A stretch of DNA of 64,000 nucleotides. Source: Gammaproteobacteria bacterium. Its GTDB lineage: Bacteria; Pseudomonadota; Gammaproteobacteria; SZUA-229. Location: NCBI GenBank assembly GCA_030148865.1, contig JASBSR010000040.1, positions 62,518 to 126,517 of the forward strand, given 5' to 3'. The notes under the pieces were generated by a model. That model saw only the letters and a program-made list of their open reading frames with translations. It did not search any database and was not told where the DNA came from. The translations under genes were made by a program, and so were the position numbers. Positions 15,702 to 45,649 of this stretch are shown one piece after another (position 1 is the stretch's first letter; each line of letters begins with the position of its first letter).

Positions 15702-16520
<819 letters not shown>

Positions 16521-16533
16521 TTTGTTTGAACTG

Positions 16534-16560
16534 AAGCCCTGTATATGCAGGGCTTTTTTG
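16534..16560 (+). terminator. Rho-independent terminator after adk
   Basis: aagccctg-tatatg-cagggctt followed by ttttttg. Confidence 0.6.
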
Positions 16561-16590
16561 TACTTTCACAATAATAAGCGAGATAGAATA

Positions 16591-24271: not shown

Positions 24272-24760
24272 ATGAGAATCAGTACTATGAGATATTTATC
24301 AGTCATCTTTACAGCCTTGATGATGCTGTCGGCAGGCACAGCCATCGCTAACGAACGCTATGGCAAGCAAAAGGTGGTTTATCACATCAACTACGATGAT
24401 CCGAAAAAACAAACCGGTGCCCTGCGTAACATCCAGAACCATATCAATGCAGTGGGTGCAGAAAACCTGGATATTAAGGTTGTGCTCCACGGCAATGGTC
24501 TGGCACTGCTATTAGAACCTGATTCACTGGCGAAACTGAAAAAGTTCAAACACGCCAATGCCGATAACAGAATGACAGCACGCATCGACGGCCTGAAAAA
24601 TCAGGGCGTATCGTTCAATGTATGCGCCAACACCGTTAAAGGCCGCAAGGTTGATATCAAAACTGATCTCTACAACGTCGACGATAAGGACATCGTACCT
24701 AGCGGTGTAGCAGAACTCGCACGATTGCAGCAGATGGGCTACGTATACATCAAGCCTTAA
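24272..24760 (+). CDS. Secreted DsrE/YchN-like family protein (paralog 1)
   Basis: 162 aa. Signal peptide MRISTMRYLSVIFTALMMLSAGTAIA. Rossmann-like pattern comparable to YchN/DsrE, single conserved Cys (FNVCANTV), C-terminus GYVYIKP. RBS GAGGTAAG. Confidence 0.6.
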   Translation: MRISTMRYLSVIFTALMMLSAGTAIANERYGKQKVVYHINYDDPKKQTGALRNIQNHINAVGAENLDIKVVLHGNGLALLLEPDSLAKLKKFKHANADNRMTARIDGLKNQGVSFNVCANTVKGRKVDIKTDLYNVDDKDIVPSGVAELARLQQMGYVYIKP

Positions 24761-24812
24761 GCATTAAAGTCTTTCACACACCAAGCACTACTTTCCCCCA
24801 CTGGAGATAACA

Positions 24813-25256
24813 ATGAAAACAGCAATACGCGTTATGCTGCTCGCGGCACTCGCAACAATGACCACCATGACTAATGCGGCACAGCCCGAGGACAAACCGT
24901 TTGCAGAAAAGAAAGTCGTTCTGCAAATCAGCGATGGCGATCCATCCAAACAAACACTCGTATTGAATGTCGCCGGCAACATCATCAGGCACTACGGTGC
25001 CGACAAGGTAGATGTTGAAATCGTCGCTTTTGGCCCGGGCCTGCGCCTGTTGTTTAAAAACAATGCCAATGGTGATCGCATCACTGGCCTCGTCGGTAGT
25101 GGCGTTCGCTTTGCTGCCTGCAGTAATACGGTACACAACATGGGCAAAAAACTCGGCCATGACCCCGAGTTGAATTCAAATGCCACCACTGTTTCAGCGG
25201 GTGTAGTACGAATCATCGATCTGGTTTCTGATGGTTACGTTCTGGTCAAACCCTGA
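24813..25256 (+). CDS. Secreted DsrE/YchN-like family protein (paralog 2)
   Basis: 147 aa. Signal peptide MKTAIRVMLLAALATMTTMTNA, conserved Cys (FAACSNTV), C-terminus GYVLVKP. RBS GGAGATAA. Confidence 0.6.
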   Translation: MKTAIRVMLLAALATMTTMTNAAQPEDKPFAEKKVVLQISDGDPSKQTLVLNVAGNIIRHYGADKVDVEIVAFGPGLRLLFKNNANGDRITGLVGSGVRFAACSNTVHNMGKKLGHDPELNSNATTVSAGVVRIIDLVSDGYVLVKP

Positions 25257-25308
25257 TCTGTTCAGTATTTAAAACTAAAAAATTATATTTTTATCCGGAG
25301 GAGTCATT

Positions 25309-26664
25309 GTGACTATTACAGTAAATAAAAAGCGTCTATACGCTTCAGCGATTCTATGCTCACTGCTGAGCGCACCCACCTACGCTGCCAACTGGCTGGC
25401 ATTACAGGGCACTGAGCCCGACAGCGCAGCACCACGCGCCAAAGTATGGGGCTTTATCCAGCCTGAGTTCTCATCGACTGATGGCACCAAGCTCAAGGCG
25501 GGTCCCTGGAAAGGTCAGAATGCCATCTTTAACCAGATGCGCCCCAATCTGAAAACCAATGAAGGTTTTAATGTTCTACGTGCACGTGTCGGCGTGCGTG
25601 GTACCGGCATGCCGCTGGACAGTAATGTTAACTATTTTTTCCTGGCTGAATTTGGTAACAACGGCATCACCGCAGAAGGCGGTGGCAGCGTCAAAATCAC
25701 TGACGCCAGTGTTACCTTGAATCATATTCCAGGGGCGCGCATACGTGTCGGCCAGTTCAAAACCCCTGGCTCTGAAGAAGGTTTACAGGCAATTCACGTG
25801 TTCGACTACATCAACTTCACCAATGCCACTAACGGTCTGCTGCTGGAACGATTCTTCGATGGGAACGGTTCTGGAACGAACGTGGTACCGGGAACACCAC
25901 CTACTTTTAACAACTCAGGTGATGCGAACCGTCCCAACGGCCCGGTAAGCGCGTTTCGTGACACCGGTATTCAGGTGTTTGATATATTCAAAGTCGGCCA
26001 ATGGGAACATAGCTATGCGGTGATGATTGGTAACGGCAATGGTATCACTCGTGGTGATAACGATGACAACAAGGAAACCTATCTGTACTGGTCATCAGAA
26101 CTGGTGTTTGGGGGCGCGGGCGCACGACGCCAGGGCTGGAAACTGTTTGCCTGGAATCAAAATGGTAAACGCACGCTGATCACTGAAGGCGCGGGCGAAT
26201 ATGACCGTACCCGCAGTGGCCTTGGCACCACCTTCAAGAAAGACAAATACCGCGCCGCCTTCGAGTATATGACTGCTGACGGCATGATCTTCAACGGTAC
26301 CGATGGCGGTGCATTACCAGGTGCTTCCTCTAACAACGGGCAGACAATATCGTCATTCAACGTTGAAACGAAAGGTGAGGCTGACGGCATGTACGTGCAC
26401 TTCGGTTATGCCATTACGCCTGAGTTAGAACTGGATGCACGCTACGACGTGTACAACCGCATGACTGATGTTGCAGCAAAAGAACGTAAATTCGAAACTG
26501 TAACTCTGGGTGCTCAGTACTTCTTCAACAAAAAGAGTCGTTTAATCGTGAACTATGAAGCACGCAAAGCCGAAGCACCTAACCAGGCTAGTACTAGCAA
26601 TGCTAATCAAATTCTGGATAGCATAGACGACAGAATTGCAGCTCAGTTGCTGATCATTTTCTAA
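25309..26664 (+). CDS. Outer-membrane beta-barrel porin (possibly anion/phosphate-selective OprO/P-like)
   Basis: 451 aa, GTG start after GGAGGAG, signal peptide, alternating amphipathic beta-strand pattern, C-terminal ...LLIIF (terminal Phe). Confidence 0.55.
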   Translation: MTITVNKKRLYASAILCSLLSAPTYAANWLALQGTEPDSAAPRAKVWGFIQPEFSSTDGTKLKAGPWKGQNAIFNQMRPNLKTNEGFNVLRARVGVRGTGMPLDSNVNYFFLAEFGNNGITAEGGGSVKITDASVTLNHIPGARIRVGQFKTPGSEEGLQAIHVFDYINFTNATNGLLLERFFDGNGSGTNVVPGTPPTFNNSGDANRPNGPVSAFRDTGIQVFDIFKVGQWEHSYAVMIGNGNGITRGDNDDNKETYLYWSSELVFGGAGARRQGWKLFAWNQNGKRTLITEGAGEYDRTRSGLGTTFKKDKYRAAFEYMTADGMIFNGTDGGALPGASSNNGQTISSFNVETKGEADGMYVHFGYAITPELELDARYDVYNRMTDVAAKERKFETVTLGAQYFFNKKSRLIVNYEARKAEAPNQASTSNANQILDSIDDRIAAQLLIIF

Positions 26665-27095: not shown

Positions 27096-28331
27096 CTATT
27101 CAGCAAAAGCCAGATAGTCGAGCACATCGCCTTCTTTAATTTCACGGCCCACTGGTATCACCACCAGACCCTCGGCCCAGCTCGCCGAACTCAGGACACC
27201 CGAGCCCTGTTTTGGATAGATTACCGCCCAGGACTCACCATCGCGCTGTTCGATGCGGGCGCGCAGGAATTCGCTGCGCTGCGCTGCACGCCAGGCAAAA
27301 CCTGCTTTCACAGAGATCGGCTTTGCCAGACATTCGCTTTCACCCTGTAACTGTCGAATCACTGGCCGGGCAAAAATCTGCGCGGTGACAAACACCGACA
27401 CCGGGTTGCCGGGCAGGCCGAGAAACAGTGCCTTGCCAATGCGGCCAAAGGCCACCGGCTTGCCCGGTTTCATCGCAATACGCCAGAGCACCAGTGTGCC
27501 CAGTTGTTGCAGTGCGCGGCGCACATAATCTTCTTCACCGACCGAAACGCCACCGCTGGTGAGAATCAGATCGGCCTCGGTGGCAGCCTGTTCGATCACT
27601 GCCAGTGTCGCCTCCATGCTGTCGGCGATGATGCCATAGTCGGTGATTTCGCAGTCCTGTGCCTGTAAAAAACCGTTCAGGGTATAGCGATTGGAATTGT
27701 AGATCTGACCATCAGCCAGCGGCTCGCCCGGGCTAACCAGCTCGTCGCCGGTAAAAAAACAGGCGACCTTGAGTCGGCGCACCACTTCGACTTCGGCGAT
27801 GCCGACCGAGGCGATCAAGCCCAGCTCCTGCGATCGCAGACGACGACCTGCATTCAGAATGATACTGCCCTGCTGAATGTCTTCACCAGTACGGCGGATA
27901 TTATCGCCGGCCTTCACGACAGCTTCGATGCGAACCTGATCGCTGTCTTCGCTACGTGTACAGCGTTCCTGCATCACCACCGCGTCCGCCCCCGGCGGGA
28001 TCGGCGCACCGGTAAAAATACGCGCCGCGGTGCCGGCTTTCAGTTCGACCCCGGAAGTGCCGGCAGGAATGCGCTGCGCCACGGTCAAAACTGCACCCGA
28101 CCGGGCGCAATCGGCGCTGCGCACCGCATAGCCGTCCATCGCGGAATTATCGTAACCTGGCACATTCAGGCTGGAGACCACAGCCTGCGCCAGCACTCGG
28201 TCACGTGCCTGCAACAGATTCAGTTTTTCACTGGCTGTCAGCACCGGGGTCTGCGCCAGCAGCTGCGCGATGGCCGCCTCGACCGAGAGCAGTGGTTCTG
28301 AATAACAGTCTTCTGGCTTTGCAGGACTCAT
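27096..28331 (-). CDS. moeA: Molybdopterin molybdotransferase
   Basis: 411 aa MoeA family (...GGVSVGEEDY..., four-domain layout). Confidence 0.85.
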   Translation of the reverse strand: MSPAKPEDCYSEPLLSVEAAIAQLLAQTPVLTASEKLNLLQARDRVLAQAVVSSLNVPGYDNSAMDGYAVRSADCARSGAVLTVAQRIPAGTSGVELKAGTAARIFTGAPIPPGADAVVMQERCTRSEDSDQVRIEAVVKAGDNIRRTGEDIQQGSIILNAGRRLRSQELGLIASVGIAEVEVVRRLKVACFFTGDELVSPGEPLADGQIYNSNRYTLNGFLQAQDCEITDYGIIADSMEATLAVIEQAATEADLILTSGGVSVGEEDYVRRALQQLGTLVLWRIAMKPGKPVAFGRIGKALFLGLPGNPVSVFVTAQIFARPVIRQLQGESECLAKPISVKAGFAWRAAQRSEFLRARIEQRDGESWAVIYPKQGSGVLSSASWAEGLVVIPVGREIKEGDVLDYLAFAE

Positions 28332-28337: not shown

Positions 28338-28856
28338 TTATTGCTCGAGCAATCGCGGCATCAGTTCGACCATATTGCAGGGCGCATTGCGATGGTCCAG
28401 CTGCGGCCCGATGATTTCGTCCCAGCCAGTTTTACAGGCACCGGTGGAACCTGGCAGACAGAAAATAAAAGTGGCATTGGCGACCCCGCCAAGCGCGCGC
28501 GAGGCCACAGTGGAGGTCTTGATGTCCTGATACGAAAGCCAGCGAAACAGCTCACCAACGCCTTCGATTTCTTTATCCAGCAATGGGCGAATCGCTTCCG
28601 GAGTGATATCGCGACCCGTAAGGCCGGTGCCACCGGTGATGATCACCACATTGACCCCGGGGTCGGCTATCCAGCGCGAAACCGTCTCGCGGATGCGATA
28701 TTTGTCGTCGACGATAATGGTTTTTTCCGCGAGCTGATGGCCAGCTTCGCTGATACGCTCGACCAGTATTTGCCCCGAAGTGTCCGTGGCTTCGGTACGA
28801 CTGTCAGACACGGTTAGCACCGCGATATTCACTGCAATAAAATTAGGTTCATTCAT
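28338..28856 (-). CDS. moaB: Molybdenum cofactor biosynthesis protein B (MoaB/Mog family)
   Basis: 172 aa MogA/MoaB fold with IITGGTG and GSTG motifs; 6 nt upstream of moeA. Confidence 0.8.
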
Positions 28857-28928: not shown

Positions 28929-28942
28929 TTGATGCATATCAA
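28929..28942 (+). promoter_or_regulatory. Consensus FNR/ANR-type binding site upstream of nirT/napC
   Basis: TTGATgcatATCAA (perfect TTGAT-N4-ATCAA), centred about 90 bp upstream of the 29027 start. A -10-like tatagt lies at 28958-28963. Confidence 0.5.
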
Positions 28943-29026: not shown

Positions 29027-29674
29027 GTGAGAAAGTTCGCGCTCGGATTCCACAATTTCACCACCCCTGTAGCGCTCTTTATCCTGATTGTGAGTTTTAT
29101 CGCAGGTATTTTGTTCTGGGGAGCGTTCAACACCATCCTTGAATTAACCAATACCGAAAGTTTCTGTATCTCCTGTCATGAAATGAGAGACAACGTATAC
29201 AAGGAATATCGTCACAGCGTCCATTTCGCAAATGCTACTGGAGTACGCGCCACCTGCCCGGATTGTCATGTGCCTAAAGAATGGACGCATAAAGTGGCCC
29301 GAAAAATTGCTGCCACCAACGAATTATTCCACCATTTTGCCGGTTCTATAGATACCACAGAAAAATTCACTGCAAAGCGTTTCGAACTGGCGCAGATCGT
29401 CTGGCGCGTTATGAAGGAAACCGATTCTCGAGAATGCAGAAACTGCCACAGCGAAACCGCGATGGCATTATCCAGGCAAAGACCCGCCGCTGCAGAACAA
29501 CATGAACTTGCCCAGCAACAGCACAAAACCTGCATCGACTGCCATAAAGGTATCGCACATGAACTGCCAGAAAAATTTCTGGCGGCTGAGCACGAGCGCT
29601 TTGAAAAAGAAAAAGTCGATTGCATACAATGCCATGCCGATATGGCACACGCCAAACCCGGCGATGAAATCTGA
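29027..29674 (+). CDS. nirT: NapC/NirT-family membrane-anchored tetrahaem cytochrome c quinol dehydrogenase
   Basis: 215 aa, GTG start. N-terminal TM helix, four CxxCH motifs (CISCH, CPDCH, CRNCH, CIDCH) with NapC-family spacing. Confidence 0.8.
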   Translation: MRKFALGFHNFTTPVALFILIVSFIAGILFWGAFNTILELTNTESFCISCHEMRDNVYKEYRHSVHFANATGVRATCPDCHVPKEWTHKVARKIAATNELFHHFAGSIDTTEKFTAKRFELAQIVWRVMKETDSRECRNCHSETAMALSRQRPAAAEQHELAQQQHKTCIDCHKGIAHELPEKFLAAEHERFEKEKVDCIQCHADMAHAKPGDEI

Positions 29675-29897
29675 TTTCCGGAAACCGCCACCATTTTCAG
29701 TCACTTAGCCGTGATTGAAAATTGGATGAATTATTCAAAGGGGACTGGGATATGTAGCAGTGTTCGACGCAGCGTTGAATAGTTCATTACTTTGGGAGCT
29801 TCTCTGGGGTTTTCTACGGATTATTGACTTACGTCATAAATAGCGAGCATATATACCGGTACTGTTGCACGGGAAAAACCACCCTCAGGAGTCCAGG

Positions 29898-30539
29898 ATG
29901 TCAGTCAAACTCGCGCTATCAGCCCTGCTCGTTGCGGTATCGTGCTATTCACCATTACTGCTGGCTGCAAATAAAGCAGAGATCGCACTAGGCGAACAAA
30001 TCTATAATCAGAATTGCTCGGTCTGTCACCAGGCAGATGCTATCGGCAAGCCCGGCTTTGCACCATCGCTCACAAATCCAGAATTGCTTCACATAGCATC
30101 CGATAAATTTTTTGAAGGCACGATTCGTGATGGCCGCGGTGGCACCGGTATGCCACCATTTAGCCACCTGGGTAGAAAAAACATCAAGGCCATTGTCGCC
30201 TATTTACGCTCACATACTGACAAGCCAAATATTGCCGAAAAAGTGAATAAACAACCCGATGCACACGGGGATCCTCGGCTCGGTAAGGAATGGTTCCATT
30301 CTATTTGTTCCACCTGCCACGGCGCCAATGGCGATGGCTATAGTGCAGGCGGTACTGGAACCGCCATTGGTAAAAAAGGTTTTCTCAGTAAGGTATCTGA
30401 TGGCTTTATTCGCACCACCATCAAACTGGGACGTTCTAACACACGCATGCTTGGTTTTCAGGGTGCCAGCGGTCTCGCCAATCTGAGTGACCGGGAAATC
30501 GACGACATCATTGTTTACTTACGCAGTCTGCCTGAATAA
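29898..30539 (+). CDS. Periplasmic dihaem cytochrome c (c4/c552-type, NirB-like)
   Basis: About 213 aa from the ATG at 29898 (RBS AGGAG). Signal peptide. Two class-I cytochrome c domains with CSVCHQ and CSTCHG about 110 residues apart. Confidence 0.75.
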   Translation: MSVKLALSALLVAVSCYSPLLLAANKAEIALGEQIYNQNCSVCHQADAIGKPGFAPSLTNPELLHIASDKFFEGTIRDGRGGTGMPPFSHLGRKNIKAIVAYLRSHTDKPNIAEKVNKQPDAHGDPRLGKEWFHSICSTCHGANGDGYSAGGTGTAIGKKGFLSKVSDGFIRTTIKLGRSNTRMLGFQGASGLANLSDREIDDIIVYLRSLPE

Positions 30540-30553
30540 AGAGGATCCTGATC

Positions 30554-33274
30554 ATGAAACGCTTCAAAATAAATCGACGTACCTTTCTCAAGGGCAGCGC
30601 ATTTATCACCGGCTCCACCGCAGGCGCGGGCTTGATGGTGGCTGCCAACCCTGAGCTGGAAGCCGCAACTTCAACGATTGATTCCGCTTCGCGCACCACT
30701 GCGCTGGCACAGTGCCCGTATTGCGGCGTTGGCTGCGGCACTGTGATTCAGGTCGAGAACGGAAAAATTGTATCCATGCGCCCGGACAAAGATCATCCGA
30801 CAAATTTCGGTCTGCAATGTATAAAAGGCCTGACCGCTGCCGAACCGATTTATGTCGATCGTATGGAAGGTGATTCTTATGTACGCAAAGATGTCTGGGA
30901 TGAATGGAACAAACCCGGTCACGGTGATCTCGCTTATGTAAGCAAAACCAAAGGCTCGTTTGATGAAGAACATTTTGTCCGCGTACCTTACAAAGCGGCG
31001 GGCGAAATGGTCGATCACAAGATCGCACACTTTGCGAAGAAAGACGGTGGCAACTCGATAGCACTGTATGGCTCTGGCCAGCTCACCATGGAAGGCCAGT
31101 ATCTTGAAAACCTGTTCATGAAGGGCGTACTAGGTTCCAATACCATTGAAGCCAATGCGCGTATGTGTATGACTTCGGCGGTCACCGGCTACTTTGCTAC
31201 CCTTGGCTCAGATACACCGCCTCTGGCCTATGAAGACATTGAGATGTGCGACATGATTATGCACTTTGGTCATAATGCACGCGAATCACACCCGATTATT
31301 TTCTGGCGCGCTGCTGATTATAAAAAGAAAAACGATATCCCCACCGTAGTGGTTGATCCGCGTCGTACCGGAACTGTAATGGGATACGAGGACATCAACC
31401 CAAAAAATACTGTACACGTTCCTATTCTCAACGGTGACATAAGTTTTCTTAACGCCATCGCGCACGTGCTGCTGAAAGACCACGACGATGTCATTGACTG
31501 GGAATTTCTCAAAGCCCACGCCAACGGCTGGAAAGATTACGTAGACGGCGTAAAAGCCAATTATAGTCCCGAACAGGTGCAGGATCGTATGGGTGGCCCT
31601 AATCACGATGTATCACCCGAACTCATCAGACGCGTCGCTGGCATGTTTGCCGACGCCACTCGTAAGCGTCTGGCCCGCAGCAAAGGCAAGCAAAATGCCA
31701 GTGAAAGTGGTGTACCCGGTGGTGATGGTTATGGTGGTGTCATCATCATGTGGGGTATTGGTTACAATCAGCACATTCACGGCCAGAACAATGTAATTTC
31801 AATCATTAACCTGCTGACACTGACCGGCAATCTGGCCAAACCTGGCTGTGGCCCGTTTTCAATGACCGGCCAGCCCAATGCCATGGGCGAACGTTTCACC
31901 GGCGGTTTAACCGGTCGTCTGCCTTTCAATCAGCCATTAAAAAATGCAGAGCATCGTTTACATATGGCCCAACACTGGCGGGTTCCAGAAAAAAATCTGG
32001 TGAATGCCATGAACTCTCAAAACCCGGGCATGGCTGTAGGCATGATGGAGCGAGCGTTGAAAGGCGATGTCAAAGCCATGTTTCTGGTCTATGCCACACA
32101 CATCGACTTGCCCGATCAGGAAAACCTTGTGCGCCCGGCATTAATGAAAACATTTAATGTGGTGCAGGAAATATATCGCCATGCACCCAATAATTTATAC
32201 GCCGATGTTATATTCCCGGCAGCAACCTGGGGTGAGGTTAACGGTGTTTATATCAGCTCTGAACGCCGGATCAATATCTGTGAACAGGCCGCTATGCCAC
32301 CCAAAGGCTGTTTACCCGATCTTGATATGGTCATCGACAAAGCCAAAGGGATTGGCGAATTACTCGGCCTCGACATGGAAAAAACCCTGCCCTACAAAAA
32401 AGGCAAGAATGGGTTTTACGATACTGAAGAAATTTTCCGCGATGTCTGCCGTGCATCCGAAGGTACTGATACTGATTTAACCGGCATACTCGAACGCGAA
32501 AAAGTCGATGGCATCTCACCGTATGAGCAGCTCAAGGAGCTGCGTGGCATCCAGTGGCCCGCACCGACCTACGCGATTGCCAAAGCAGGCGGTACCAAGC
32601 GTCGCTATATGCTGCAGGAAGGCAACTGGAAATCCAAACCCTACGGTTACTTCCGCACCAAGGATGGCAAGGTACACATGAAACTGTGCCAGCAGGATTA
32701 CAGTCAACGTGAAGCCGTGACCAAAAAACTGATGGAATTTGGTATCAAGAAAGATCTATACACGATTGACCATATCGACCTCATCAAGCAGGCGCGTGAT
32801 ATGGGGCTGACGCCCGACTTACCGGATGAAAAATATCGTGGCAAGCTCTGGCAGGATGTTCCCGATGACAAATTCCCCTACTGGTTTGGCCTCGGTGTTG
32901 TCTATGAGCATTTTCATACAGCCAAATCTAACCGTAGCCCGACTACACGACGGCTGGTGCCTGAAATGTATGTTGAAATGCACCCCGATGATGCCAAAGA
33001 TCTCGGCATCAAAGACGGCGACAAAGTACGGGTGGTGACTCGTCGTGGCTCACTGGAAGCCCGGGCACAGGTGGGCACTGCTAGTCTGGTTAAACCGGCA
33101 CGAAACAATGTACCACGCGGCTACATGTTCGGCCCCTGGAACCTGTCAGTTGCCGACAGCGCGGTACCGGAAAAAAATAAGTGGCTGGCGAATCGCGTTA
33201 CCAGCCGCGTCTGGGATCCCGTCTCGGGTCAGGTTGATTTCAAGAAATCAGCGGCACGCATAGAGAAAATATAG
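30554..33274 (+). CDS. napA: Periplasmic nitrate reductase catalytic subunit, long form
   Basis: 906 aa. Tat signal KINRRTFLKGSAF. FeS motif CPYCGVGCG (NapA: CRFCGTGCG), LQCIKGLT (LNCIKGYF), and GSGQLTMEGQY...NARMCMTSAVTG...HPIIF aligning with the NapA Mo-ligand Cys region. Confidence 0.85.
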   Translation: MKRFKINRRTFLKGSAFITGSTAGAGLMVAANPELEAATSTIDSASRTTALAQCPYCGVGCGTVIQVENGKIVSMRPDKDHPTNFGLQCIKGLTAAEPIYVDRMEGDSYVRKDVWDEWNKPGHGDLAYVSKTKGSFDEEHFVRVPYKAAGEMVDHKIAHFAKKDGGNSIALYGSGQLTMEGQYLENLFMKGVLGSNTIEANARMCMTSAVTGYFATLGSDTPPLAYEDIEMCDMIMHFGHNARESHPIIFWRAADYKKKNDIPTVVVDPRRTGTVMGYEDINPKNTVHVPILNGDISFLNAIAHVLLKDHDDVIDWEFLKAHANGWKDYVDGVKANYSPEQVQDRMGGPNHDVSPELIRRVAGMFADATRKRLARSKGKQNASESGVPGGDGYGGVIIMWGIGYNQHIHGQNNVISIINLLTLTGNLAKPGCGPFSMTGQPNAMGERFTGGLTGRLPFNQPLKNAEHRLHMAQHWRVPEKNLVNAMNSQNPGMAVGMMERALKGDVKAMFLVYATHIDLPDQENLVRPALMKTFNVVQEIYRHAPNNLYADVIFPAATWGEVNGVYISSERRINICEQAAMPPKGCLPDLDMVIDKAKGIGELLGLDMEKTLPYKKGKNGFYDTEEIFRDVCRASEGTDTDLTGILEREKVDGISPYEQLKELRGIQWPAPTYAIAKAGGTKRRYMLQEGNWKSKPYGYFRTKDGKVHMKLCQQDYSQREAVTKKLMEFGIKKDLYTIDHIDLIKQARDMGLTPDLPDEKYRGKLWQDVPDDKFPYWFGLGVVYEHFHTAKSNRSPTTRRLVPEMYVEMHPDDAKDLGIKDGDKVRVVTRRGSLEARAQVGTASLVKPARNNVPRGYMFGPWNLSVADSAVPEKNKWLANRVTSRVWDPVSGQVDFKKSAARIEKI

Positions 33275-33367
33275 AACCGGGTTGTACAGGTGAATGATGG
33301 GGGAAAACAAACAACGACACACCGAATGCCATAACAACTTATGCAACCGTTCACGTAAAAGATAAAA

Positions 33368-33943
33368 ATGAAGCGTAGAACCGCACTCAAGTTCATTGGT
33401 TTTGGCGCAGCTGTAGCATTGCGCCCTGAAATGAGCATTGCGGCGACATCCAGTCCTGTATTACGATTCCTGAGGCCACCGGGCGCACTCACAGAAAATG
33501 AATTTCTGCAACGCTGTATTCACTGTGGCCAGTGTGGTGAGGCCTGCCCTAATCGTTGTATTAATTTTTTTGATCTGGAAAACGGCATTGCGTCGAGTGA
33601 CACGCCGTATATCATTCCTCGCGAAAAAGCCTGCATCCTCTGCATGAAATGTGGTGAGGTCTGTCCTACGGGTGCCATTCAAAAGGTTGCTGCCACCATG
33701 GCAGACATCATTAGCAAGGTTCACATGGGACGAGCCGTCGTCGATAGACAATTATGTTTATCGTGGCAGGGTAAAACCTGCGGTGTGTGTTACCGCGCCT
33801 GCAAGCTTCCTGATGTCGCCATTCGTGTCGGCATGCTTGAGCAACCGCATGTCCTCGATCATTGCGTCGGCTGTGGCCTGTGCGAGCGCTCGTGTATTCA
33901 AATACCTCAGGCCATCCGCATCGTACCTGATGTTTCAGCATGA
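33368..33943 (+). CDS. napG: NapG-like Tat-exported four-cluster ferredoxin
   Basis: 191 aa. Tat motif KRRTALKF. Four ferredoxin motifs (CIHCGQCGEACP, CILCMKCGEVCP, CGVCYRAC, CVGCGLCERSC). Confidence 0.8.
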   Translation: MKRRTALKFIGFGAAVALRPEMSIAATSSPVLRFLRPPGALTENEFLQRCIHCGQCGEACPNRCINFFDLENGIASSDTPYIIPREKACILCMKCGEVCPTGAIQKVAATMADIISKVHMGRAVVDRQLCLSWQGKTCGVCYRACKLPDVAIRVGMLEQPHVLDHCVGCGLCERSCIQIPQAIRIVPDVSA

Positions 33944-34926
33944 ACGGGGACAACATCAAACCCTTTTTTCTCTGGAAACATTTAAATAAACTACGTTGGC
34001 TGAGTTTGATCAGCATTTTTACCGTGCTGATTTATTTACCTTATGCGCATCTTTATCAAACCTATGAATCGGCACATGCCTATGACCTACTGGCGGACTC
34101 AGAAAAATTCATCTATGACACGATGGAAACAATCACCTCGCCTTTTATCGATGACCCGATAGAAGATCTCGACGCGATCAAGGGCAACACCTGGTCAGGA
34201 ACATTTTTCGGATTTAAACTGAGCGATCCACTTGCGGTTATCTCGCAGATATTTTCTGGCATGACCATTTACACAGCATTTTTATTGACTGCGGCATTAC
34301 CTGTATTATTAACGTTTGTATTCGGACGTTTTTTCTGTGGCTGGATTTGCCCGGCGACATTTTTATATGAGCTCAACACCAACCTGGCGGCGGGCTTAAG
34401 ACGTGCTGGACTAAAAACAGGCAACCGGCGTTTTGATCGCCGTGCCAAATATCTTGTGCTCACTATTGGCCTGATACTCTCCGCCATCAGTGGCTCAGTG
34501 CTGGCCGCAAACATTTACCCACCAGCGATTATTGGTCGAGAAATTTATTATGCAATCGCCTTAGGCGGATTCGGCACGGGTGCGGTTTTTTTCGTCGCCA
34601 CGCTGATGTTCGACCTACTGGTCGCTCGTCGCGGTTTCTGTCGCTACTTGTGTCCGGGCGGCGCACTGTATTCCATACTCGGGCGTTTCCGCCTGGTTCG
34701 CATCCAGCGTGTTGTCGAAAACTGCAATGACTGCGCCAAGTGCAATGCCATCTGCGAATTTGGACTTGACCCGCTGCGCGATGATTTTGGGCAGGAGTGC
34801 AACAACTGTTCTGCGTGCATAGCTATCTGCCCCACTGACGCCCTCACCTTCAAAATCCGGATGACAGACAGCCATTTTCAGGGCCCGGGCCATCTAGGCC
34901 GGCAATACAGTAAAGCGGCCAGATAA
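33940..34926 (+). CDS. napH: NapH-like membrane quinol dehydrogenase subunit
   Basis: 328 aa with 4 TM helices, FCGWICP and FCRYLCPGGA motifs, and two C-terminal ferredoxin motifs (CNDCAKCNAICEF, CNNCSACIAICP). Overlaps the napG stop. Confidence 0.8.
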   Translation: MNGDNIKPFFLWKHLNKLRWLSLISIFTVLIYLPYAHLYQTYESAHAYDLLADSEKFIYDTMETITSPFIDDPIEDLDAIKGNTWSGTFFGFKLSDPLAVISQIFSGMTIYTAFLLTAALPVLLTFVFGRFFCGWICPATFLYELNTNLAAGLRRAGLKTGNRRFDRRAKYLVLTIGLILSAISGSVLAANIYPPAIIGREIYYAIALGGFGTGAVFFVATLMFDLLVARRGFCRYLCPGGALYSILGRFRLVRIQRVVENCNDCAKCNAICEFGLDPLRDDFGQECNNCSACIAICPTDALTFKIRMTDSHFQGPGHLGRQYSKAAR

Positions 34927-35534
34927 TGCTGCGTCGTAATTTTATTCAGCAAATCGTTTTCAGCACGGGCGTGCTGATGGCATCAACCCTGCCTTACGGT
35001 TTTAGTCGACTGCTGGCACCCGAAGTTAAAGCCGACCCTTCAAGACAGTTAAGACCGCCGGGGGCTTTAAAGAATGACCAGGCTTTTATCGAAGCCTGTA
35101 TCGGCTGTGGCTTATGTGGTGAAGCGTGTCCACCAAAGTGTATCAAGTTTTATCAACGTGATGGCGGTAGTAAGCATAATACGCCATACATTAATCCAGA
35201 GGAGAAAGCCTGTATACTGTGTAACAAGTGCATGGAGGTTTGCCCGACCAAGTCATTAACCCTGATACCCAGAGAAAACATTGACATGGGTATTTCACAG
35301 ATAGACCGACTCGCCTGTTATCCCTGGGTAGACCGTGGAATTTGCGGCGCCTGCGTCAGCATTTGTCCGTTGGGTGAACACGCCATTGGCTTTGAAATGT
35401 GGGGACAGTACCGGCCAACGGTAAAAAGTGGCTGCGTCGGCTGCGGTCTTTGCGTAGAAGTTTGCCCGCACCCCAGTCTACCGATCAGAATAGTCGAGCG
35501 ATCACAGGGCACTGTCATGAGACACCAGATATGA
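34926..35534 (+). CDS. Second NapG/MauM-like Tat ferredoxin (paralog of napG)
   Basis: 202 aa, RRNFI Tat-like motif. LRPPGALKNDQAFIEACIGCGLCGEACP...EKACILCNKCMEVCPT parallels the same positions in napG. Four clusters. Confidence 0.7.
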   Translation: MLRRNFIQQIVFSTGVLMASTLPYGFSRLLAPEVKADPSRQLRPPGALKNDQAFIEACIGCGLCGEACPPKCIKFYQRDGGSKHNTPYINPEEKACILCNKCMEVCPTKSLTLIPRENIDMGISQIDRLACYPWVDRGICGACVSICPLGEHAIGFEMWGQYRPTVKSGCVGCGLCVEVCPHPSLPIRIVERSQGTVMRHQI

Positions 35535-36115
35535 AACTGCTTAAATTGCTTGCCGTATTGCTCGCATGCCTTGTCTGGAGTGAAGCCGGCTTCGCGCATC
35601 ACGTCCTCGGTCGCCCCTCATATAGTCTTGGCGAAGATTCAAACACTCCCCCCGGTATGCAGATTGATACCCAAATCGGTAATTATTTTGTCACCTATAT
35701 GATATTTCCTGCATTTCCAAAAGCAGGCGAACGTGGTCGTGTCAACCTCTATGCCACCCGTCTTGACAACGGGAAGGCTTTGACCGGGCAGGTCGCATTT
35801 AAAGTTCGCGATGATGTGATGTTCGGCGACAACAACGAAGAAGTGCTGGGCACACAATCTCCCGATGACAGTGTTTTTCGTCAGGGTTTTGTTTTTAGCG
35901 GCGATGGCAAATACATTATTACGGCTGAATTTACCGCCGATGGCGAACCCTATAGTATTGATTTTCCCTTGCGCATAGGTCCACCAAATTCAATAGGCCC
36001 GATCGGTTTTGCTGTTGGTGCCATTTTGATTGTTCTGATCGGCGTCAATCTGATACAACGCAAACGCCTGTTGCATACCAAAATTCGGCGTGCTCACGAG
36101 GAAACCTCGCGATGA
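35531..36115 (+). CDS. Periplasmic single-pass membrane protein, possible CopC/YtkA/FixH-like metal-binding fold
   Basis: About 194 aa from the ATG at 35531. Signal peptide cleavable after AGFA would give a mature N-terminus HHVLG (His1, as in CopC-type proteins). C-terminal TM anchor IGPIGFAVGAILIVLIGV followed by basic residues. Confidence 0.4.
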   Translation: MKLLKLLAVLLACLVWSEAGFAHHVLGRPSYSLGEDSNTPPGMQIDTQIGNYFVTYMIFPAFPKAGERGRVNLYATRLDNGKALTGQVAFKVRDDVMFGDNNEEVLGTQSPDDSVFRQGFVFSGDGKYIITAEFTADGEPYSIDFPLRIGPPNSIGPIGFAVGAILIVLIGVNLIQRKRLLHTKIRRAHEETSR

Positions 36116-37644
36116 CGATGACACACCCGGGATTACCCGATTTTTGGGGGCTGATTATCATTAGCCTCATGTTGCTCGGTGTTATCTGGGTGGTATTTTC
36201 CCCACTCCCTGCACAGTTTAATCTCTCTACCTTCAGTCTCGCGCGGCTGCCGCTGCTGGGGCGTGGTTTTCGTAAACTGAGCGCAAGCCGCTGGTTACTG
36301 TTCTCGCTAAAGCTCATTGTTGTTGGGTTTTTTTTATTAATTATCATTGCGGGTCTTTTTGGCACGCCGATAGCGGAGCGCAACATTGCTACCGTACTCA
36401 CCTGGAACCTGTGGTGGTCAGGCCTGGTTTTTTCTATATTTTTCCTGGGCTCTGCATGGTGTGCCGTCTGTCCCTGGGATACGCTGGCACAATGGCTGGT
36501 TAAACGAAAGTTGTGGAAACGTCACCATCAAATCACCAGCCTGAACTTGCGCGTGCCGCGCTGGCTACAGAATGTATGGCCTGCGCTCGCTCTATTTATC
36601 ATACTCACCTGGCTTGAGCTGGGTGTCGGCATCACCAGCAATCCTTACGCCACCGCTGCAGTTTCTTTATTAATGGTTGTGCTCGCGACAATTTCACTCG
36701 CCCTTTTTCAGCGGAAAGCGTTTTGCCGTTACTTTTGTCCAGTCGGACGCACAGTGGGTTATTACTCGCAACTGGCACCTGTTGAACTGCGTCCAATCAA
36801 CCATGATGTATGCCTGAACTGTAAAACCCTGGACTGCTACCACGGCACTGATGAAGTTGAACCCTGTCCAACCTGGCTGGTCATGGGCCGCCTGCAACAA
36901 AACAGTTATTGCACCTCTTGTGGTAACTGCAGCCAGAGTTGTCCGCATGAAAATATCGCCTGGCGTTTACGCTCACCCAGTGTTGAAGCTCTGCACAGCG
37001 CGCGCCCACATTGGGATGAATCCTGGTTTATGATTGGCCTGCTGGCACTCACTGGTTTTCATGGACTCACCATGATGCCATTCTGGGAAATCTGGATGAG
37101 CGACCTGGCTCGTGTTATTGGCGACTCAGGCCGCTTATTATGGAGCTTTTCACTCGGACTGACTGCCAGTGTTGCTGTGATAGCGAGCACCTACGCAATA
37201 CTGGTTGCAATCACAAAAAATGTACTCGGCACCGATTTGCCATTTAAACGAATGTTCTCCAACTTTGCATTTGTTTCATTACCACTTGCCTTTTCCTATC
37301 ACATGGCACACAACCTGAATCATCTAATCCGTGAAGCCGGAAATATTGGCTCAGTATTTCTCAACCCGCTCGGCATTGACACATTACCACTGAGCATGAT
37401 GGAGAAACATCAACGACAGATAGACATGTGGCTCTCGCAGGATGTGATTTTCTCTATCCAGGCGGGTTTAATGATCTTTGGTTTCTGGATTGCACTCCAG
37501 GTGGTACGTTATCGCGGTTTTAAACTTGTCCCCGCCGGCACAAGTTTTGCCAGCCTGCGATTATTCCCCATCCTGATGTTTGCAATTCTGGTAACCGGAT
37601 TCCATCTCTGGTTATTGATGCAACCCATGATCATGAGAATGTAA
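36112..37644 (+). CDS. Polytopic NapH/MauN/CcoG-family membrane polyferredoxin (510 aa, atypical architecture)
   Basis: About 10 TM helices. CAVCPWD and FCRYFCPVG motifs typical of the NapH/CcoG family. Central ferredoxin motifs CLNCKTLDC...CP and CTSCGNCSQSCP, followed by about five further TM helices. Confidence 0.65.
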   Translation: MTMTHPGLPDFWGLIIISLMLLGVIWVVFSPLPAQFNLSTFSLARLPLLGRGFRKLSASRWLLFSLKLIVVGFFLLIIIAGLFGTPIAERNIATVLTWNLWWSGLVFSIFFLGSAWCAVCPWDTLAQWLVKRKLWKRHHQITSLNLRVPRWLQNVWPALALFIILTWLELGVGITSNPYATAAVSLLMVVLATISLALFQRKAFCRYFCPVGRTVGYYSQLAPVELRPINHDVCLNCKTLDCYHGTDEVEPCPTWLVMGRLQQNSYCTSCGNCSQSCPHENIAWRLRSPSVEALHSARPHWDESWFMIGLLALTGFHGLTMMPFWEIWMSDLARVIGDSGRLLWSFSLGLTASVAVIASTYAILVAITKNVLGTDLPFKRMFSNFAFVSLPLAFSYHMAHNLNHLIREAGNIGSVFLNPLGIDTLPLSMMEKHQRQIDMWLSQDVIFSIQAGLMIFGFWIALQVVRYRGFKLVPAGTSFASLRLFPILMFAILVTGFHLWLLMQPMIMRM

Positions 37645-38252
37645 TGGATCGCCGCGCATTTTTTAAAACCACGTTCAATAAAAGCACGAAGACAATCGTG
37701 GATGAAGCCAGCCGACGCGTCAACAAAAAAGCGTCGCGCTGGATTCGACCGCCGTTTGCCATCGATGAGCTCGATTTTTTACTCGCCTGCACTCGCTGCG
37801 GTGATTGTGGTGTGGCCTGTCCACACGAGGTCATATTCGACCTGCCAGCCCGTCTCGGTGCCAGGGTCGCCGGCACTCCGGCGCTGGATTTACTCAACAA
37901 GGGCTGCCATTTATGTAGCGACTGGCCCTGTGTCAACGCCTGTAGCCCCGGCGCTTTAGCGATCAAAATTACCGAGAATGAAAGCGCGAACACTGATACT
38001 CAGCCAGCCTCTGAGCTACCGAGACTGGCGGTCGCAGCGATCGACTCAGTCACCTGCCTGCCCTTCCACGGGCCTGAGTGTGGTGCCTGTATTCCATCCT
38101 GCCCGGTACCTGGCGCACTGTCGCTGGCGGTGACCCGGCCAGTGATTAATTCAGCACTGTGCACAGGCTGCGGCCTGTGTCGGGAAAACTGTATAGTCGA
38201 ACCCGGAGCGATTCGTATCAAATCGTTGTATACTATCAAGGCGCATACATAA
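37644..38252 (+). CDS. Third NapG/MauM-like Tat ferredoxin
   Basis: 202 aa. Tat motif DRRAFFKTT. IRPPFAIDELDFLLACTRCGDCGVACP and three further Cys clusters. Confidence 0.7.
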   Translation: MDRRAFFKTTFNKSTKTIVDEASRRVNKKASRWIRPPFAIDELDFLLACTRCGDCGVACPHEVIFDLPARLGARVAGTPALDLLNKGCHLCSDWPCVNACSPGALAIKITENESANTDTQPASELPRLAVAAIDSVTCLPFHGPECGACIPSCPVPGALSLAVTRPVINSALCTGCGLCRENCIVEPGAIRIKSLYTIKAHT

Positions 38253-38339: not shown

Positions 38340-39347
38340 ATGGCAAGCTTACGAAACACTACAGATCCCGGCATGCTGATTGATCCATTTGGCCGCAGGA
38401 TCGAGTATTTGCGCCTGTCGGTGGCCGATAAGTGCAATCTGCGCTGTTTCTATTGTCTGCCCGAAGGCCACAAAGATTTCGAGCAACCCGATCACTGGCT
38501 GAGGTTTGACGAAATTGAACGTGTCATCAAAGCTTTCGCCGAACTCGGTGTTGGCCGCGTGCGCCTCACCGGCGGAGAACCTCTGGTGCGCAAAAATCTG
38601 CACCAGTTGGCTGCGAGTTTGAGTGCTCTACCCGGCATTGAGGATCTTTCGCTCAGCACCAATGCTGTATTGCTGGAACGGCACGCAGAAAATCTATTCA
38701 AGGCTGGCGTAAAACGTATTAACGTCAGTCTCGACAGCCTGAATCCCGAACGTTTCAAAGCTATCACCGGTGGTGAACTGGCAGCTGTATTATCTGGTTT
38801 GCAGGCCGCGCGCCGGGTCGGTATCGCACCGATCAAAATCAATATGGTCGCGATGAAAGGCATCAATGATGATGAGTTCGAAAACATGGTGACCTATTGT
38901 CTGGCGAACGATTTCACTCTACGCCTGATCGAAACCATGCCGATCGGCAGCACTGGCGTCACTGCCAGCGACCACTATCTCGATTTACAGGACGTGAAAA
39001 AAAATCTCAGCGAACGTTTCGATTTAATCCCCGGTGTCATGCCAGGCGGTGGCCCGGCACGCTATATGCAGATGCGCAACGAAAATTTACGCATCGGTTT
39101 TATCACACCCATTTCACAGCACTTTTGCGAAACCTGTAACCGCGTGCGACTGTCCGTCGATGGTACTTTGTATATGTGCCTCGGCCAGGAAGACAACATG
39201 GAGCTACGCCCTTTGCTACGCGCCGGTATTAGTGATGATGGCTTAAAACAGGCCATTTTTGCCGCGATTGCGCTTAAACCCGAAAAACACGAGTTCAAAA
39301 ATAAACCCGGCCAGGTGGTGCGTTTTATGAGCATGACCGGCGGCTAA
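38340..39347 (+). CDS. moaA: GTP 3',8-cyclase (molybdenum cofactor biosynthesis protein A)
   Basis: 335 aa radical SAM protein with CNLRCFYCLPEG and a C-terminal second cluster (CETCNRVRLSVDGTLYMCLG). Confidence 0.9.
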   Translation: MASLRNTTDPGMLIDPFGRRIEYLRLSVADKCNLRCFYCLPEGHKDFEQPDHWLRFDEIERVIKAFAELGVGRVRLTGGEPLVRKNLHQLAASLSALPGIEDLSLSTNAVLLERHAENLFKAGVKRINVSLDSLNPERFKAITGGELAAVLSGLQAARRVGIAPIKINMVAMKGINDDEFENMVTYCLANDFTLRLIETMPIGSTGVTASDHYLDLQDVKKNLSERFDLIPGVMPGGGPARYMQMRNENLRIGFITPISQHFCETCNRVRLSVDGTLYMCLGQEDNMELRPLLRAGISDDGLKQAIFAAIALKPEKHEFKNKPGQVVRFMSMTGG

Positions 39348-39474
39348 TTGATAATCATTTTCAAATACTACCGCCAGACGTCTGGCGCTTCACTCAACAA
39401 CAACCCACGCACTAACCTCACCACCACAGGTGGCGCATAAAATATATATTCCTGCACCAATCCGGTTCCTTTAT

Positions 39475-39488
39475 TTGACATAGGTCAC
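39475..39488 (+). promoter_or_regulatory. Candidate DNR/NNR/FNR-family half-palindromic box upstream of nirS
   Basis: TTGACatagGTCAC, about 95 bp upstream of the nirS ATG; one mismatch against TTGAC-N4-GTCAA. Confidence 0.35.
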
Positions 39489-39550
39489 CTTGTTCGCTGC
39501 CTTCAAGAGGTAGTGTCTGGTTAAAACAAGCATTTAATATACCTGTTTGA

Positions 39551-41287
<1,737 letters not shown>

Positions 41288-41342: not shown

Positions 41343-42137
41343 ATGCACAACGAAGGTTTTGTTTCACTGGTTGGCGCAGGTCCTGGCGATGTTGAGCTAC
41401 TGACAGTAAAAGCCCTGCGTTTGATTCAACAGGCTGAGGTTATAGTTTACGATCGTCTTATATCGGGCGATATTCTCAAACTGATACCAGCAGGTGTCAG
41501 TCGTATCGCAGTTGGCAAATCTCCTGGTGCACACTGCCTGCCACAGAATGATATCAATGAAATCATGATTAATCTCGCCACAGCAGGTCGTCGCGTGGTA
41601 CGACTCAAGGGGGGTGACCCTTATCTGTTTGGCCGTGGCAGCGAAGAGGCGCTGGCGCTTAAAAAACACCATATCAAATTTGAAGTCGTACCCGGCATAA
41701 CAGCAGCATTCGGTTGCAGTGCCTATAGCGGCATACCTCTGACACATCGCGGCCTGAGCCGTAGTGTGAAATTCATCACTGGCCACTTCAGCAACGATGA
41801 AGCGCTCGAGTATGACTGGGAAAAACTCGCCGACCAGGATTGCACCCTGGTGTTTTATATGGCGATGGCGAATCTATTAACTATTTGCAGTCAATTGATT
41901 AATGCTGGATTAGATGCAGGCACACCCGCCGCTGCAGTTGAAAATGGAACCACGCAATCACAACGACGTATCATTTCAACATTAGGCCTGCTCTTTGCCG
42001 AAGTGAGTGCACAGAGAATACAGGCACCTGCGATGATTATTATCGGCAATGTGGTTTCACTCGCTACAGACATCGACTGGTTTCAGCAATCACTGGAGAT
42101 GACAGTCTATGACGAAAGTCTCGCTGCCAGTCGCTAG
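41343..42137 (+). CDS. nirE: Uroporphyrinogen-III C-methyltransferase (haem d1 / sirohaem branch)
   Basis: 264 aa SUMT with GAGPGDVELLTVKA and RLKGGDPYLFGRG motifs. Confidence 0.8.
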   Translation: MHNEGFVSLVGAGPGDVELLTVKALRLIQQAEVIVYDRLISGDILKLIPAGVSRIAVGKSPGAHCLPQNDINEIMINLATAGRRVVRLKGGDPYLFGRGSEEALALKKHHIKFEVVPGITAAFGCSAYSGIPLTHRGLSRSVKFITGHFSNDEALEYDWEKLADQDCTLVFYMAMANLLTICSQLINAGLDAGTPAAAVENGTTQSQRRIISTLGLLFAEVSAQRIQAPAMIIIGNVVSLATDIDWFQQSLEMTVYDESLAASR

Positions 42138-45638: not shown

Positions 45639-45649
45639 GGATCAATCAC

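Follow-up and report, generated by a model that had tools for sequence, protein, structure and literature searches.

A Nap-like gene cluster built around a putative periplasmic molybdenum reductase outside the curated NapA family

INTRODUCTION

What does a locus do that has the gene order of a periplasmic nitrate reductase (Nap) operon and contains neither napB nor napD? The question is raised by a 64,000-nucleotide stretch of DNA from a gammaproteobacterium of the lineage SZUA-229 (GenBank assembly GCA_030148865.1, contig JASBSR010000040.1, positions 62,518 to 126,517, forward strand), which is referred to here as the window. In an earlier note, positions 29,027 to 34,926 of the window were read as nirT, a gene for a c4-type dihaem cytochrome, a long-form napA, napG and napH. 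The five open reading frames (ORFs) were recovered where that note had placed them, with the cytochrome ORF at 29865–30539, and an independent gene call on the identical public contig (Logan SRR23576960) returned the same frames. The names of several of these genes, however, did not withstand comparison with curated protein families. The central gene encodes a catalytic subunit of 906 amino acids (aa), which we call MoX and which appears to found a family of its own. On the sequence evidence, we lean somewhat towards the interpretation that the cluster encodes a separate, low-oxygen-induced Nap-like periplasmic reductase, with nitrate as its most likely substrate.

RESULTS

MoX lies outside the NapA family

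MoX (30554–33274, plus strand) is predicted to be a catalytic subunit of the molybdenum or tungsten bis-pyranopterin guanine dinucleotide (Mo/W-bisPGD) type, with an N-terminal [4Fe-4S] motif and export by the twin-arginine translocation (Tat) pathway. The three domains typical of a Mo-bisPGD enzyme were found by a Pfam scan. Against curated NapA models, MoX reached 334.0 bits on the NCBIfam model NF010055, for which the cut-off is 904, and 307.3 bits on TIGR01706, for which it is 930.55; the shortfall is about 3-fold, and the name napA assigned in the earlier note has to be withdrawn. The score on the formate dehydrogenase (Fdh) alpha model TIGR01591 was about level with those on the NapA models (311 bits, cut-off 666), and that on the NasA model was 259 bits. 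As a positive control, the canonical NapA encoded at a related locus, L011, scored 1445.6 bits on the NapA model.

Pairwise comparisons give the same picture of distant relatedness. MoX is 27–29% identical over its full length to annotated NapA genes (27% for E. coli NapA), and its top solved relatives are NapA structures (2nya, E 7e-74). The corresponding matches score 252 bits for E. coli NapA, 238 bits for D. desulfuricans NapA and 220 bits for C. jejuni NapA (9pxt), and the solved NapA structures align to MoX in two or three stretches only.

A search of 1.84 billion representatives clustered at 50% identity returned relatives of MoX at 1004 bits (54% identity), 736 bits (49%) and 465 bits (40%), after which all other full-length representatives scored at most 351 bits and shared at most 39% identity with MoX. 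None of the three relatives reaches a cut-off for Nap, Nas or Fdh. When 110 representatives were placed in a rough neighbour-joining tree, the MoX family came out as a separate clade, distinct from those of NapA ('DEP'), Nas/NarB ('DGP') and Fdh ('CH'). Within the family, members from Gamma-, Alpha- and Zetaproteobacteria and from Rhodocyclaceae are 80–95% identical. Relatives at 49–63% identity occur in Verrucomicrobiota, in Myxococcota and in the Bacillota species Microaerobacter geothermalis, those of Verrucomicrobiales and Myxococcota being at about 60%. The plasmid collection contained no family member and yielded only canonical NapA or Nas proteins at less than 30% identity.

Members carry public names such as 'hypothetical', 'molybdopterin-dependent oxidoreductase' and 'ferredoxin-nitrate reductase', and 'NapA' was used for one fragment. 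As judged from these comparisons, MoX is the founder of an isolated family, sister to NapA, Nas and Fdh, and not a NapA. No description of the family was found in the full-text literature, although a paper beyond the searchable literature may exist. Two published systems were considered and set aside, namely the 'unusual nap' of Bacillus azotoformans (PMC3475470) and the nap genes of 'Ca. Siderophilus' (PMC10993476); both are of the canonical type with NapB and NapD.

Active-site residues are partly retained and insertions are placed differently

MoX was aligned to E. coli NapA and to L011 NapA for residue comparison. It keeps the Tat motif NRRTFLKG, the four [4Fe-4S] cysteines (CPYCGVGCG...CIKG), the Lys of CIKG and the catalytic Arg (QPNAMGERF). 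The residue after the Mo-ligand Cys is Met (NARMCMTSAV), a feature that MoX shares with Nap and Nas; in Fdh, His follows the Cys or selenocysteine (Sec). This pattern supports nitrate-reductase-like chemistry at the predicted active site.

Other positions differ from NapA. The NapA pterin-contact motif TGRVLEHWH reads GLGVVYEHFHT in MoX, with Val in place of Arg and Phe in place of Trp. Arg720 and Trp725 (E. coli numbering) of this motif are conserved in all five NapA structures (PMC13223375), and the Arg is kept by nearly all Nap, Nas and Fdh representatives of our tree. The Tyr that follows CIKG, conserved in NapB-binding NapA proteins (PMC13223375), is Leu in MoX.

That the enzyme is longer than enterobacterial NapA, as the earlier note had pointed out, is correct: MoX exceeds E. 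coli NapA (828 aa) by 78 residues. The further suggestion that it is close to the long form of epsilonproteobacteria is not borne out by the alignment. The additional residues fall into five insertions at sites of MoX's own, the largest comprising about 50 residues near positions 705–765, MoX has neither of the two insertions that characterise proteobacterial NapA, and C. jejuni NapA is a weaker match than E. coli NapA. Because the insertions sit elsewhere, the likeness to the epsilonproteobacterial long form is one of length only.

A class-I dihaem cytochrome stays with MoX

To establish the composition of the cluster, we scanned one genome per GTDB species, which gave 146 relatives of MoX, and retrieved 80 loci, in which gene order was determined by tblastn with the proteins of the window. 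The most constant neighbour is the gene directly upstream, here called c2. It encodes a predicted periplasmic class-I dihaem cytochrome c of 213 aa with a Sec signal peptide; within the ORF beginning at 29865, the gene occupies 29898–30539 on the plus strand, starting at an ATG behind AGGAG (independent gene call, L081). Its stop codon is separated from the MoX start by 14 nt, the distance given in the earlier note. Where upstream sequence was available, c2 stands directly upstream of MoX in 69 of the 72 loci and slightly farther upstream in the other three. A dihaem cytochrome c also lies immediately upstream of MoX in the 54% relative, from a deltaproteobacterial metagenome-assembled genome (MAG), and in the 49% relative, from the Gram-positive M. 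geothermalis.

The only Pfam matches of c2 are two class-I cytochrome domains (PF00034/PF13442). In 57 orthologues the two CxxCH motifs are kept, as are M85 and M184, the candidate axial Met ligands. The c4-type label is a loose one: two class-I domains with their CxxCH motifs and Met residues agree with it, but among solved structures c2 comes closest to the dihaem domains of CcoP (E 7e-16), and cytochrome c4 matches only at E 2e-3.

The sequence data support c2 as the dedicated partner of MoX, in the role that NapB has in Nap, and its presumed function is that of direct electron donor or partner. The proposal that the dihaem cytochrome substitutes for NapB gains from the near-constant adjacency of c2 to MoX and from the Leu at the Tyr position after CIKG. 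Neither NapB nor NapD has a match in the window when E. coli K-12 proteins are compared by phmmer with all six-frame ORFs of at least 40 aa and the spare small ORFs are searched with Pfam, so the absence of the two genes, first noted for the locus, extends to the whole 64 kb. The genes of the operon leave no space in which an 85-aa gene on the plus strand could have been missed, and in the 80 related loci napD is not one of the genes conserved in the cluster.

The cluster extends to nine genes

The locus had been taken to end at position 34926, whereas four more conserved genes run to 38252. The conserved order is (nirT-like)-c2-MoX-G1-H1-G2-unk-H2-G3, a cluster of eight or nine genes at 29027–38252. 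The full downstream set, consisting of three NapG/F-like genes, two NapH-like genes and one gene termed unk, was found in 31 of the 53 loci with enough sequence, and most of the others are short of a single tblastn match. The NapG/NapH-like genes downstream of MoX are also kept at 54% identity (deltaproteobacterial MAG) and 49% identity (M. geothermalis); the latter locus has in addition TatA, TatC, a NapF-like ferredoxin and molybdenum cofactor (Moco) genes.

The first gene, nirT-like (29027–29674, plus strand), encodes a tetrahaem membrane cytochrome of the NapC/NirT family, a predicted quinol dehydrogenase, with 255.9 bits on PF03264, 272.5 bits on TIGR02161 (cut-off 310.6) and 236.6 bits on the NapC equivalog model (cut-off 349). 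Its occurrence is variable. It is present in 46 of the 80 loci, lies upstream in 36 of 63, and is downstream and inverted in about eight.

Downstream of MoX, all on the plus strand, G1 (33368–33943) encodes a NapG-like periplasmic poly-ferredoxin with the twin-arginine signal MKRRTALKF (130.7 bits on NF007012, cut-off 269), and H1 (33940–34926) a NapH-like integral-membrane ferredoxin containing PF12801 (154.1 bits on NF007013, cut-off 234; 148.6 on TIGR02163, cut-off 213). The position of G1 after MoX and that of H1 are conserved in the related loci. G2 (34926–35534), also conserved in synteny, encodes a second NapG-like Tat ferredoxin (MLRRNFIQQ; 96.7 bits on the NapG model, cut-off 269). 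By comparison, the canonical proteins of L011 reach 358.5 bits (NapG) and 402.5 bits (NapH); the names napG and napH proposed earlier are not confirmed for G1 and H1. The last gene, G3 (37644–38252), encodes a NapF-like ferredoxin that scores best on the NapF and NapG models (TIGR00402 62.6 bits, cut-off 102.2; NapG model 108.6, cut-off 269) and, like E. coli NapF, has an RR motif without a hydrophobic signal core; by analogy, it is presumably a cytoplasmic maturation factor. Since all the accessory proteins are below the equivalog cut-offs, they are regarded as paralogues of Nap proteins.

Between G2 and G3 are two genes of a different kind. The unk gene (35531–36115, plus strand) encodes a 194-aa protein in which a signal peptide is followed by an Ig-like beta-sandwich and, at the C-terminus, by a membrane helix; the protein has no match in Pfam or NCBIfam. 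It has 1275 homologous clusters at 90% identity, and its mature N-terminus is an invariant HHVLGRP. The AlphaFold2 (AF2) model (predicted local distance difference test, pLDDT, 85) shows the Ig-like sandwich and the C-terminal membrane helix, and the fold is weakly similar to the Cu-binding proteins FetP/P19, PmoD and CrdA (E about 1e-3, template modelling (TM) score 0.35–0.45), which is a lead and not an assignment. A 180-aa protein encoded after the Microaerobacter cluster has no homology to unk. H2 (36112–37644, plus strand) is a 510-aa membrane protein whose N-terminal half is a NapH/CcoG-like polyferredoxin (43.3 bits on TIGR02163; PF12801) and whose C-terminal half is helical, with His317, 397, 400, 404 and 433 invariant in the alignment. 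Its AF2 model has a predicted TM score (pTM) of 0.81, and it has no solved structural relative in the Protein Data Bank (PDB; best E 0.065). Together, unk and H2 look like a metal-handling or haem-b module, for which a Nap-like system offers no evident use.

Some loci have additional NapG-like and NapH-like genes, inverted or in tandem, beside the cluster; they lie upstream of c2 in L051 and are also present at the Myxococcota loci L075 and L077. The G/H module has thus undergone repeated duplication.

The cluster is associated with FNR boxes and NarXL pairs

The divergent intergenic region between the moaB and nirT-like genes contains an FNR/ANR-type box, TTGATGCATATCAA (28929–28942), a perfect palindrome 85–98 bp upstream of the nirT-like start codon and the sole TTGA-N6-TCAA match in the window. 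Such boxes recur at related loci. The pattern TTGA[TC]N4[AG]TCAA was found in 32 of the 60 intergenic stretches that immediately precede nirT or c2 and in 12 of the 304 other intergenic regions of the same loci, which corresponds to an odds ratio of 28 (Fisher p 9e-20). At many loci, including those of Thiogranum longum, which has the complete cluster, and Thiohalobacter sp. IOR34, the box upstream of the cluster is unique within about 22 kb. Loci without a box often have a divergent NarX/Q-like sensor gene and narL directly upstream (L040, L047, L048, L050, L052 and L059). The sensor scores 408 bits and carries the nitrate-binding P-box motif LRMRSYR, and the NarL beside the cluster scores 295 bits, above the cut-off of 250. 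Two loci from Rhodocyclaceae, L020 and L022, have genes for NarX-like, NarL and Crp/Fnr proteins on the downstream side. Overall, NarXL pairs flank about nine loci and FNR genes four more. The boxes and the NarXL pairs imply that the cluster belongs to a low-oxygen regulon and that it is in several lineages also tied to nitrate or nitrite sensing. Inside the operon, a scan for promoter and terminator consensus sequences gave nothing above shuffled expectation.

The upstream region of the nirS gene located farther downstream (39348–39574) has no TTGA-N6-TCAA box, the perfect box at the nirT-like promoter being 10 kb upstream; transcription of nirS may come by read-through from the cluster, or it may be under a different regulator.

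Hosts and genomic neighbourhood

MoX hosts include Thiohalobacter, Thiogranum, Thiotrichaceae, Ca. Parabeggiatoa and Acidiferrobacteraceae, as well as Zetaproteobacteria, Rhodocyclaceae, and Alpha- and Gammaproteobacteria from oxygen-minimum zones and sponges. The distribution is largely marine, covering vents, oxygen-minimum zones, sponges and sediments. At L011, in a Thiotrichaceae MAG (JALXAX010000064), a canonical napFDAGHB operon (123–6614) stands back-to-back with a nirT-c2-MoX cluster, and NapD (E 5e-9), NapB, NapG, NapH and NapF are all recognisable. Because a true napFDAGHB adjoins the cluster there, the MoX cluster and Nap are separate systems.

In the window, nirS lies 6.3 kb downstream of the MoX gene on the same strand and is followed by a complete haem-d1 set (nirECFDLGHJN, 41343–48414), comprising SUMT, a NirC-like cytochrome, NirF, AsnC-like proteins of the NirD/L/G-H type, the radical-SAM protein NirJ and NirN, with PdxS after it. 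Among the 80 related loci, none has nirS within 10 kb of the cluster. Moco genes are loosely associated with the cluster. A gene for MoaA, a GTP 3',8-cyclase of Moco biosynthesis (38340–39347, plus strand; 376 bits on TIGR02666, cut-off 284), adjoins the cluster in 7 loci. Divergent from the cluster, on the minus strand, are the genes for MoeA (27096–28331) and a MoaB/Mog-type protein (28338–28856), both identified by Pfam matches, an arrangement that recurs in L053 and L057. The nirS cluster, the nap operon of L011 and the flanking Moco genes together form an N-oxide neighbourhood that indirectly favours nitrate.

Just upstream of the Moco genes (24272–26664) are two DsrE-like ORFs and a 451-aa ORF of the anion-selective porin family (Porin_O_P-like). 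Porin-like ORFs flank the cluster in about five to eight other loci, and such porins might provide outer-membrane entry for an anionic substrate. A periplasmic thioredoxin-like protein of 780–810 aa (Thioredox_DsbH plus DsbD_N) follows the cluster in 9–10 loci (L084, 17984–20338; also L020, L021, L022, L026, L031, L049, L050, L056 and L073). Several apparent clusters of recurrent neighbours were left out because they consisted of artefactual antisense ORFs in GC-rich loci.

Farther upstream, the window contains a reverse-dsr-type cluster (235–12360) with small DsrEFH/DsrC-like ORFs, a DsrK-like, a DsrL-like and an NrfD-type DsrP-like protein, and a CobB-like DsrN. A HisKA_3 kinase and a response regulator come after it and, further on, ATP sulfurylase (19177–20376). 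The dsr cluster and ATP sulfurylase identify the host as a sulfur-oxidising gammaproteobacterium. A phosphofructokinase gene (PF00365) is found beside that of a membrane H+-pyrophosphatase (893 bits; 14344–18609), a pairing that suggests an energy economy based on pyrophosphate (PPi).

DISCUSSION

A proposed electron pathway

For a Nap-like nitrate reductase, the predicted components could be arranged as follows. Electrons would pass from the quinol pool through the nirT-like tetrahaem protein, through G1 and H1, or through both, to c2; because c2 is a class-I cytochrome, it could also be fed from the bc1 complex or the soluble cytochrome c pool. A precedent for such a route is the Nap of Campylobacter, which depends on Qcr, a cytochrome bc complex, and in which the role of NapGH is uncertain (PMC6195509). 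MoX, exported by Tat, would receive the electrons from c2 at its [4Fe-4S] cluster and pass them on to Mo, where nitrate would be reduced to nitrite; in this genome, the nitrite could proceed to the adjacent NirS. G3 would probably act as a cytoplasmic maturation factor standing in for the missing NapD, and G2-unk-H2 might be either a second transmembrane electron input or a device for metal or redox maturation. The sequences themselves show the make-up of the cluster, the distinctness of the family, the conserved synteny, the FNR-type boxes and the kept catalytic Cys and Arg; we infer the direction of electron flow, a physical complex of c2 with MoX and the identity of the substrate.

Several observations weigh against nitrate reduction as the function of the cluster. 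The pterin-contact Arg is replaced by Val or Ile in the whole MoX family, including the relatives at 40–54% identity, and two of the four charged channel residues of D. desulfuricans NapA are lost (E156 to T and D355 to F). No Nap system has anything that corresponds to G2-unk-H2. In E. coli, NarL and FNR also control enzymes unrelated to nitrate, such as those encoded by fdnGHI and dmsABC, so the regulatory argument for nitrate is suggestive and not specific. M. geothermalis also has narGHJI (PMC9119079), and given the co-occurrence of the cluster with Nar in this species and with Nap in L011, nitrate reduction in the hosts needs no MoX. The MoX system is accordingly an additional one and not the sole nitrate reductase of its hosts. 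Finally, T. longum is reported to require oxygen obligately (Mori 2015, as cited in PMC10092204), so the cluster alone does not give anaerobic growth on nitrate.

Alternative functions

Among the alternatives, the one that survives best, although we still consider it unlikely, is that MoX reduces another oxyanion or oxide in the periplasm (iodate, chlorate or perchlorate, selenate, or an S- or N-oxide) and serves as an auxiliary acceptor system at low oxygen. The family-wide differences from NapA at substrate-channel and pterin-contact positions would then be expected, and the co-occurrence with Nap and Nar, the largely marine distribution and the presence of the cluster in T. longum, which is reported not to respire nitrate, would be accommodated; FNR control suits any anaerobic acceptor. 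The neighbourhood points the other way. NarX and NarL are the only substrate-specific regulators beside the cluster (about nine loci), the cluster adjoins nirS in the window and nap in L011, and neither cld nor an idrP-type peroxidase nor any other pathway-specific partner was among the recurrent neighbours.

It is rather improbable that MoX works in the oxidising direction, as a periplasmic dehydrogenase (e.g. for nitrite, arsenite or a sulfur compound) that passes electrons to the high-potential, CcoP-like dihaem cytochrome and from there to a cbb3 oxidase or NirS. The quinol dehydrogenase homologues of the NapC and NapGH types, the NapF-like factor, NarXL control and the denitrification neighbourhood all fit a reductase, the His found beside Cys in Fdh is absent, and oxidases of the Aio type have no Cys ligand (PMC10100899). 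Such a dehydrogenase would nevertheless suit the His/Met class-I partner nearest CcoP, a typical acceptor for enzymes of this kind, as well as hosts that are sulfur- or iron-oxidising lithotrophs. There is also some resemblance of H2 and unk to assembly factors of cbb3 oxidase, namely CcoG and the Cu chaperones, and cbb3 genes are classic targets of FNR/FixK control.

Very little speaks for the suggestion, made in the earlier note, that the nirT-like protein and the dihaem cytochrome serve NirS in the manner of NirT and NirB from the P. stutzeri nirSTB genes, leaving the NapGH-like pair alone to serve MoX. P. stutzeri does have a pairing of NirT with a dihaem protein, and nirS does follow on the same strand in this window; however, nirS is absent within 10 kb at all 80 related loci, c2 stays by MoX, the nirT-like gene is part of the cluster in more than half of these loci, and the pairing persists in the Thiohalobacter, Thiogranum and Microaerobacter loci, which lack a nearby nirS. 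That MoX is an ordinary long-form NapA that merely lost or relocated napB and napD is equally hard to maintain, since its NapA-type structural matches, nap-like gene order, Tat signal, Cys ligand and NapC/G/H/F-like neighbours are set against the missed NapA models, the low identity, the separate clade, the displaced insertions with those of NapA absent, the weaker match to C. jejuni NapA than to E. coli NapA, and the genuine napFDAGHB beside the cluster in L011.

Significance

The interpretation as a Nap-like reductase with nitrate as its probable substrate has consequences for the way in which nitrate reduction is inventoried. Models of narG and napA are the basis on which denitrification and nitrate reduction are surveyed in oceans, vents, sediments and wastewater, and the MoX family fails these models; if MoX reduces nitrate, the capacity of sulfur- and iron-oxidising lithotrophs for nitrate reduction has been underestimated. 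Moreover, the energy balance of lithotrophic denitrification would have to be revised for a Nap-type enzyme that is coupled to a class-I cytochrome, and if the substrate is not nitrate, the cluster would represent a new respiratory acceptor system. The 80–95% identity across proteobacterial classes corresponds to very strong purifying selection on the family. Cultured carriers exist, namely T. longum, Thiohalobacter sp. IOR34 and M. geothermalis.

A broader proposal can be put forward tentatively, and we would not assume it to be correct: the cluster could represent a class of respiratory oxyanion reductases in the periplasm that has so far gone unrecognised. Its substrate would be either nitrate, which would add a further type to Nar, Nap and Nas, or a different oxidant of marine environments, for example iodate, and it would be fed from the high-potential cytochrome c pool through its His/Met dihaem subunit. 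If so, sulfur- and iron-oxidising lithotrophs could pass electrons at the level of Sox or Cyc2 to an acceptor without reverse electron flow, and this class of reductase would be invisible to surveys with napA and narG markers, despite at least about 1,000 distinct sequence clusters in public metagenomes.

Comparison with known systems

One parallel is with the accessory set of cbb3 oxidase (CcoP, CcoG/FixG and periplasmic Cu chaperones). Here, c2 is nearest CcoP, H1 and H2 match the CcoG model weakly, H2 belongs to the NapH/CcoG/NosR polyferredoxin superfamily, unk is Ig-like with an N-terminal His pair and a weak similarity to Cu-binding proteins, and control is of the FNR type in both sets. 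However, all these similarities are remote, no oxidase subunit is present, and the cluster is built around a Mo enzyme.

With the epsilonproteobacterial napAGHBFLD type the cluster shares a long catalytic subunit (about 900–925 aa) and NapGH-like proteins without an absolute need for NapC, and the Qcr-dependent entry of electrons at the level of cytochrome c in these Nap systems shows that a route like the one suggested for c2 has a known forerunner (PMC6195509). The length is nevertheless convergent, NapB, NapL and NapD are missing from the MoX cluster, and a NapC/NirT-like gene is present in about half of its loci.

The similarity to E. coli napFDAGHBC lies in a predicted periplasmic, Tat-exported, Cys-ligated Mo-bisPGD/[4Fe-4S] enzyme with an adjacent dihaem cytochrome gene, in NapC-, NapG-, NapH- and NapF-like genes, and in control by FNR and Nar-type regulators. 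The cluster differs from it in the absence of a bis-His NapB (PF03892) and of NapD, in the Leu that replaces Tyr, and in accessory scores below the equivalog level.

Closest by gene order is the napCMADGH type of D. desulfuricans, with a NapC-type protein, a c-type cytochrome, the catalytic subunit, NapG and NapH; among the described operon types, it combines a monomeric NapA and no NapB with a cytochrome gene between napC and napA (PMC13223375). Like this system, the MoX locus lacks NapB, and its catalytic subunit lacks the proteobacterial NapA insertions. Unlike it, the cluster has a class-I His/Met dihaem c2 in place of the tetrahaem NapM, no NapD and an extra G2-unk-H2-G3 module, and MoX has about 130 residues of its own insertions, has lost the Arg of TGR and fails the NapA thresholds. 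Undescribed within the searchable literature, the cluster would work like a Nap system but stands outside the NapA family as curated.

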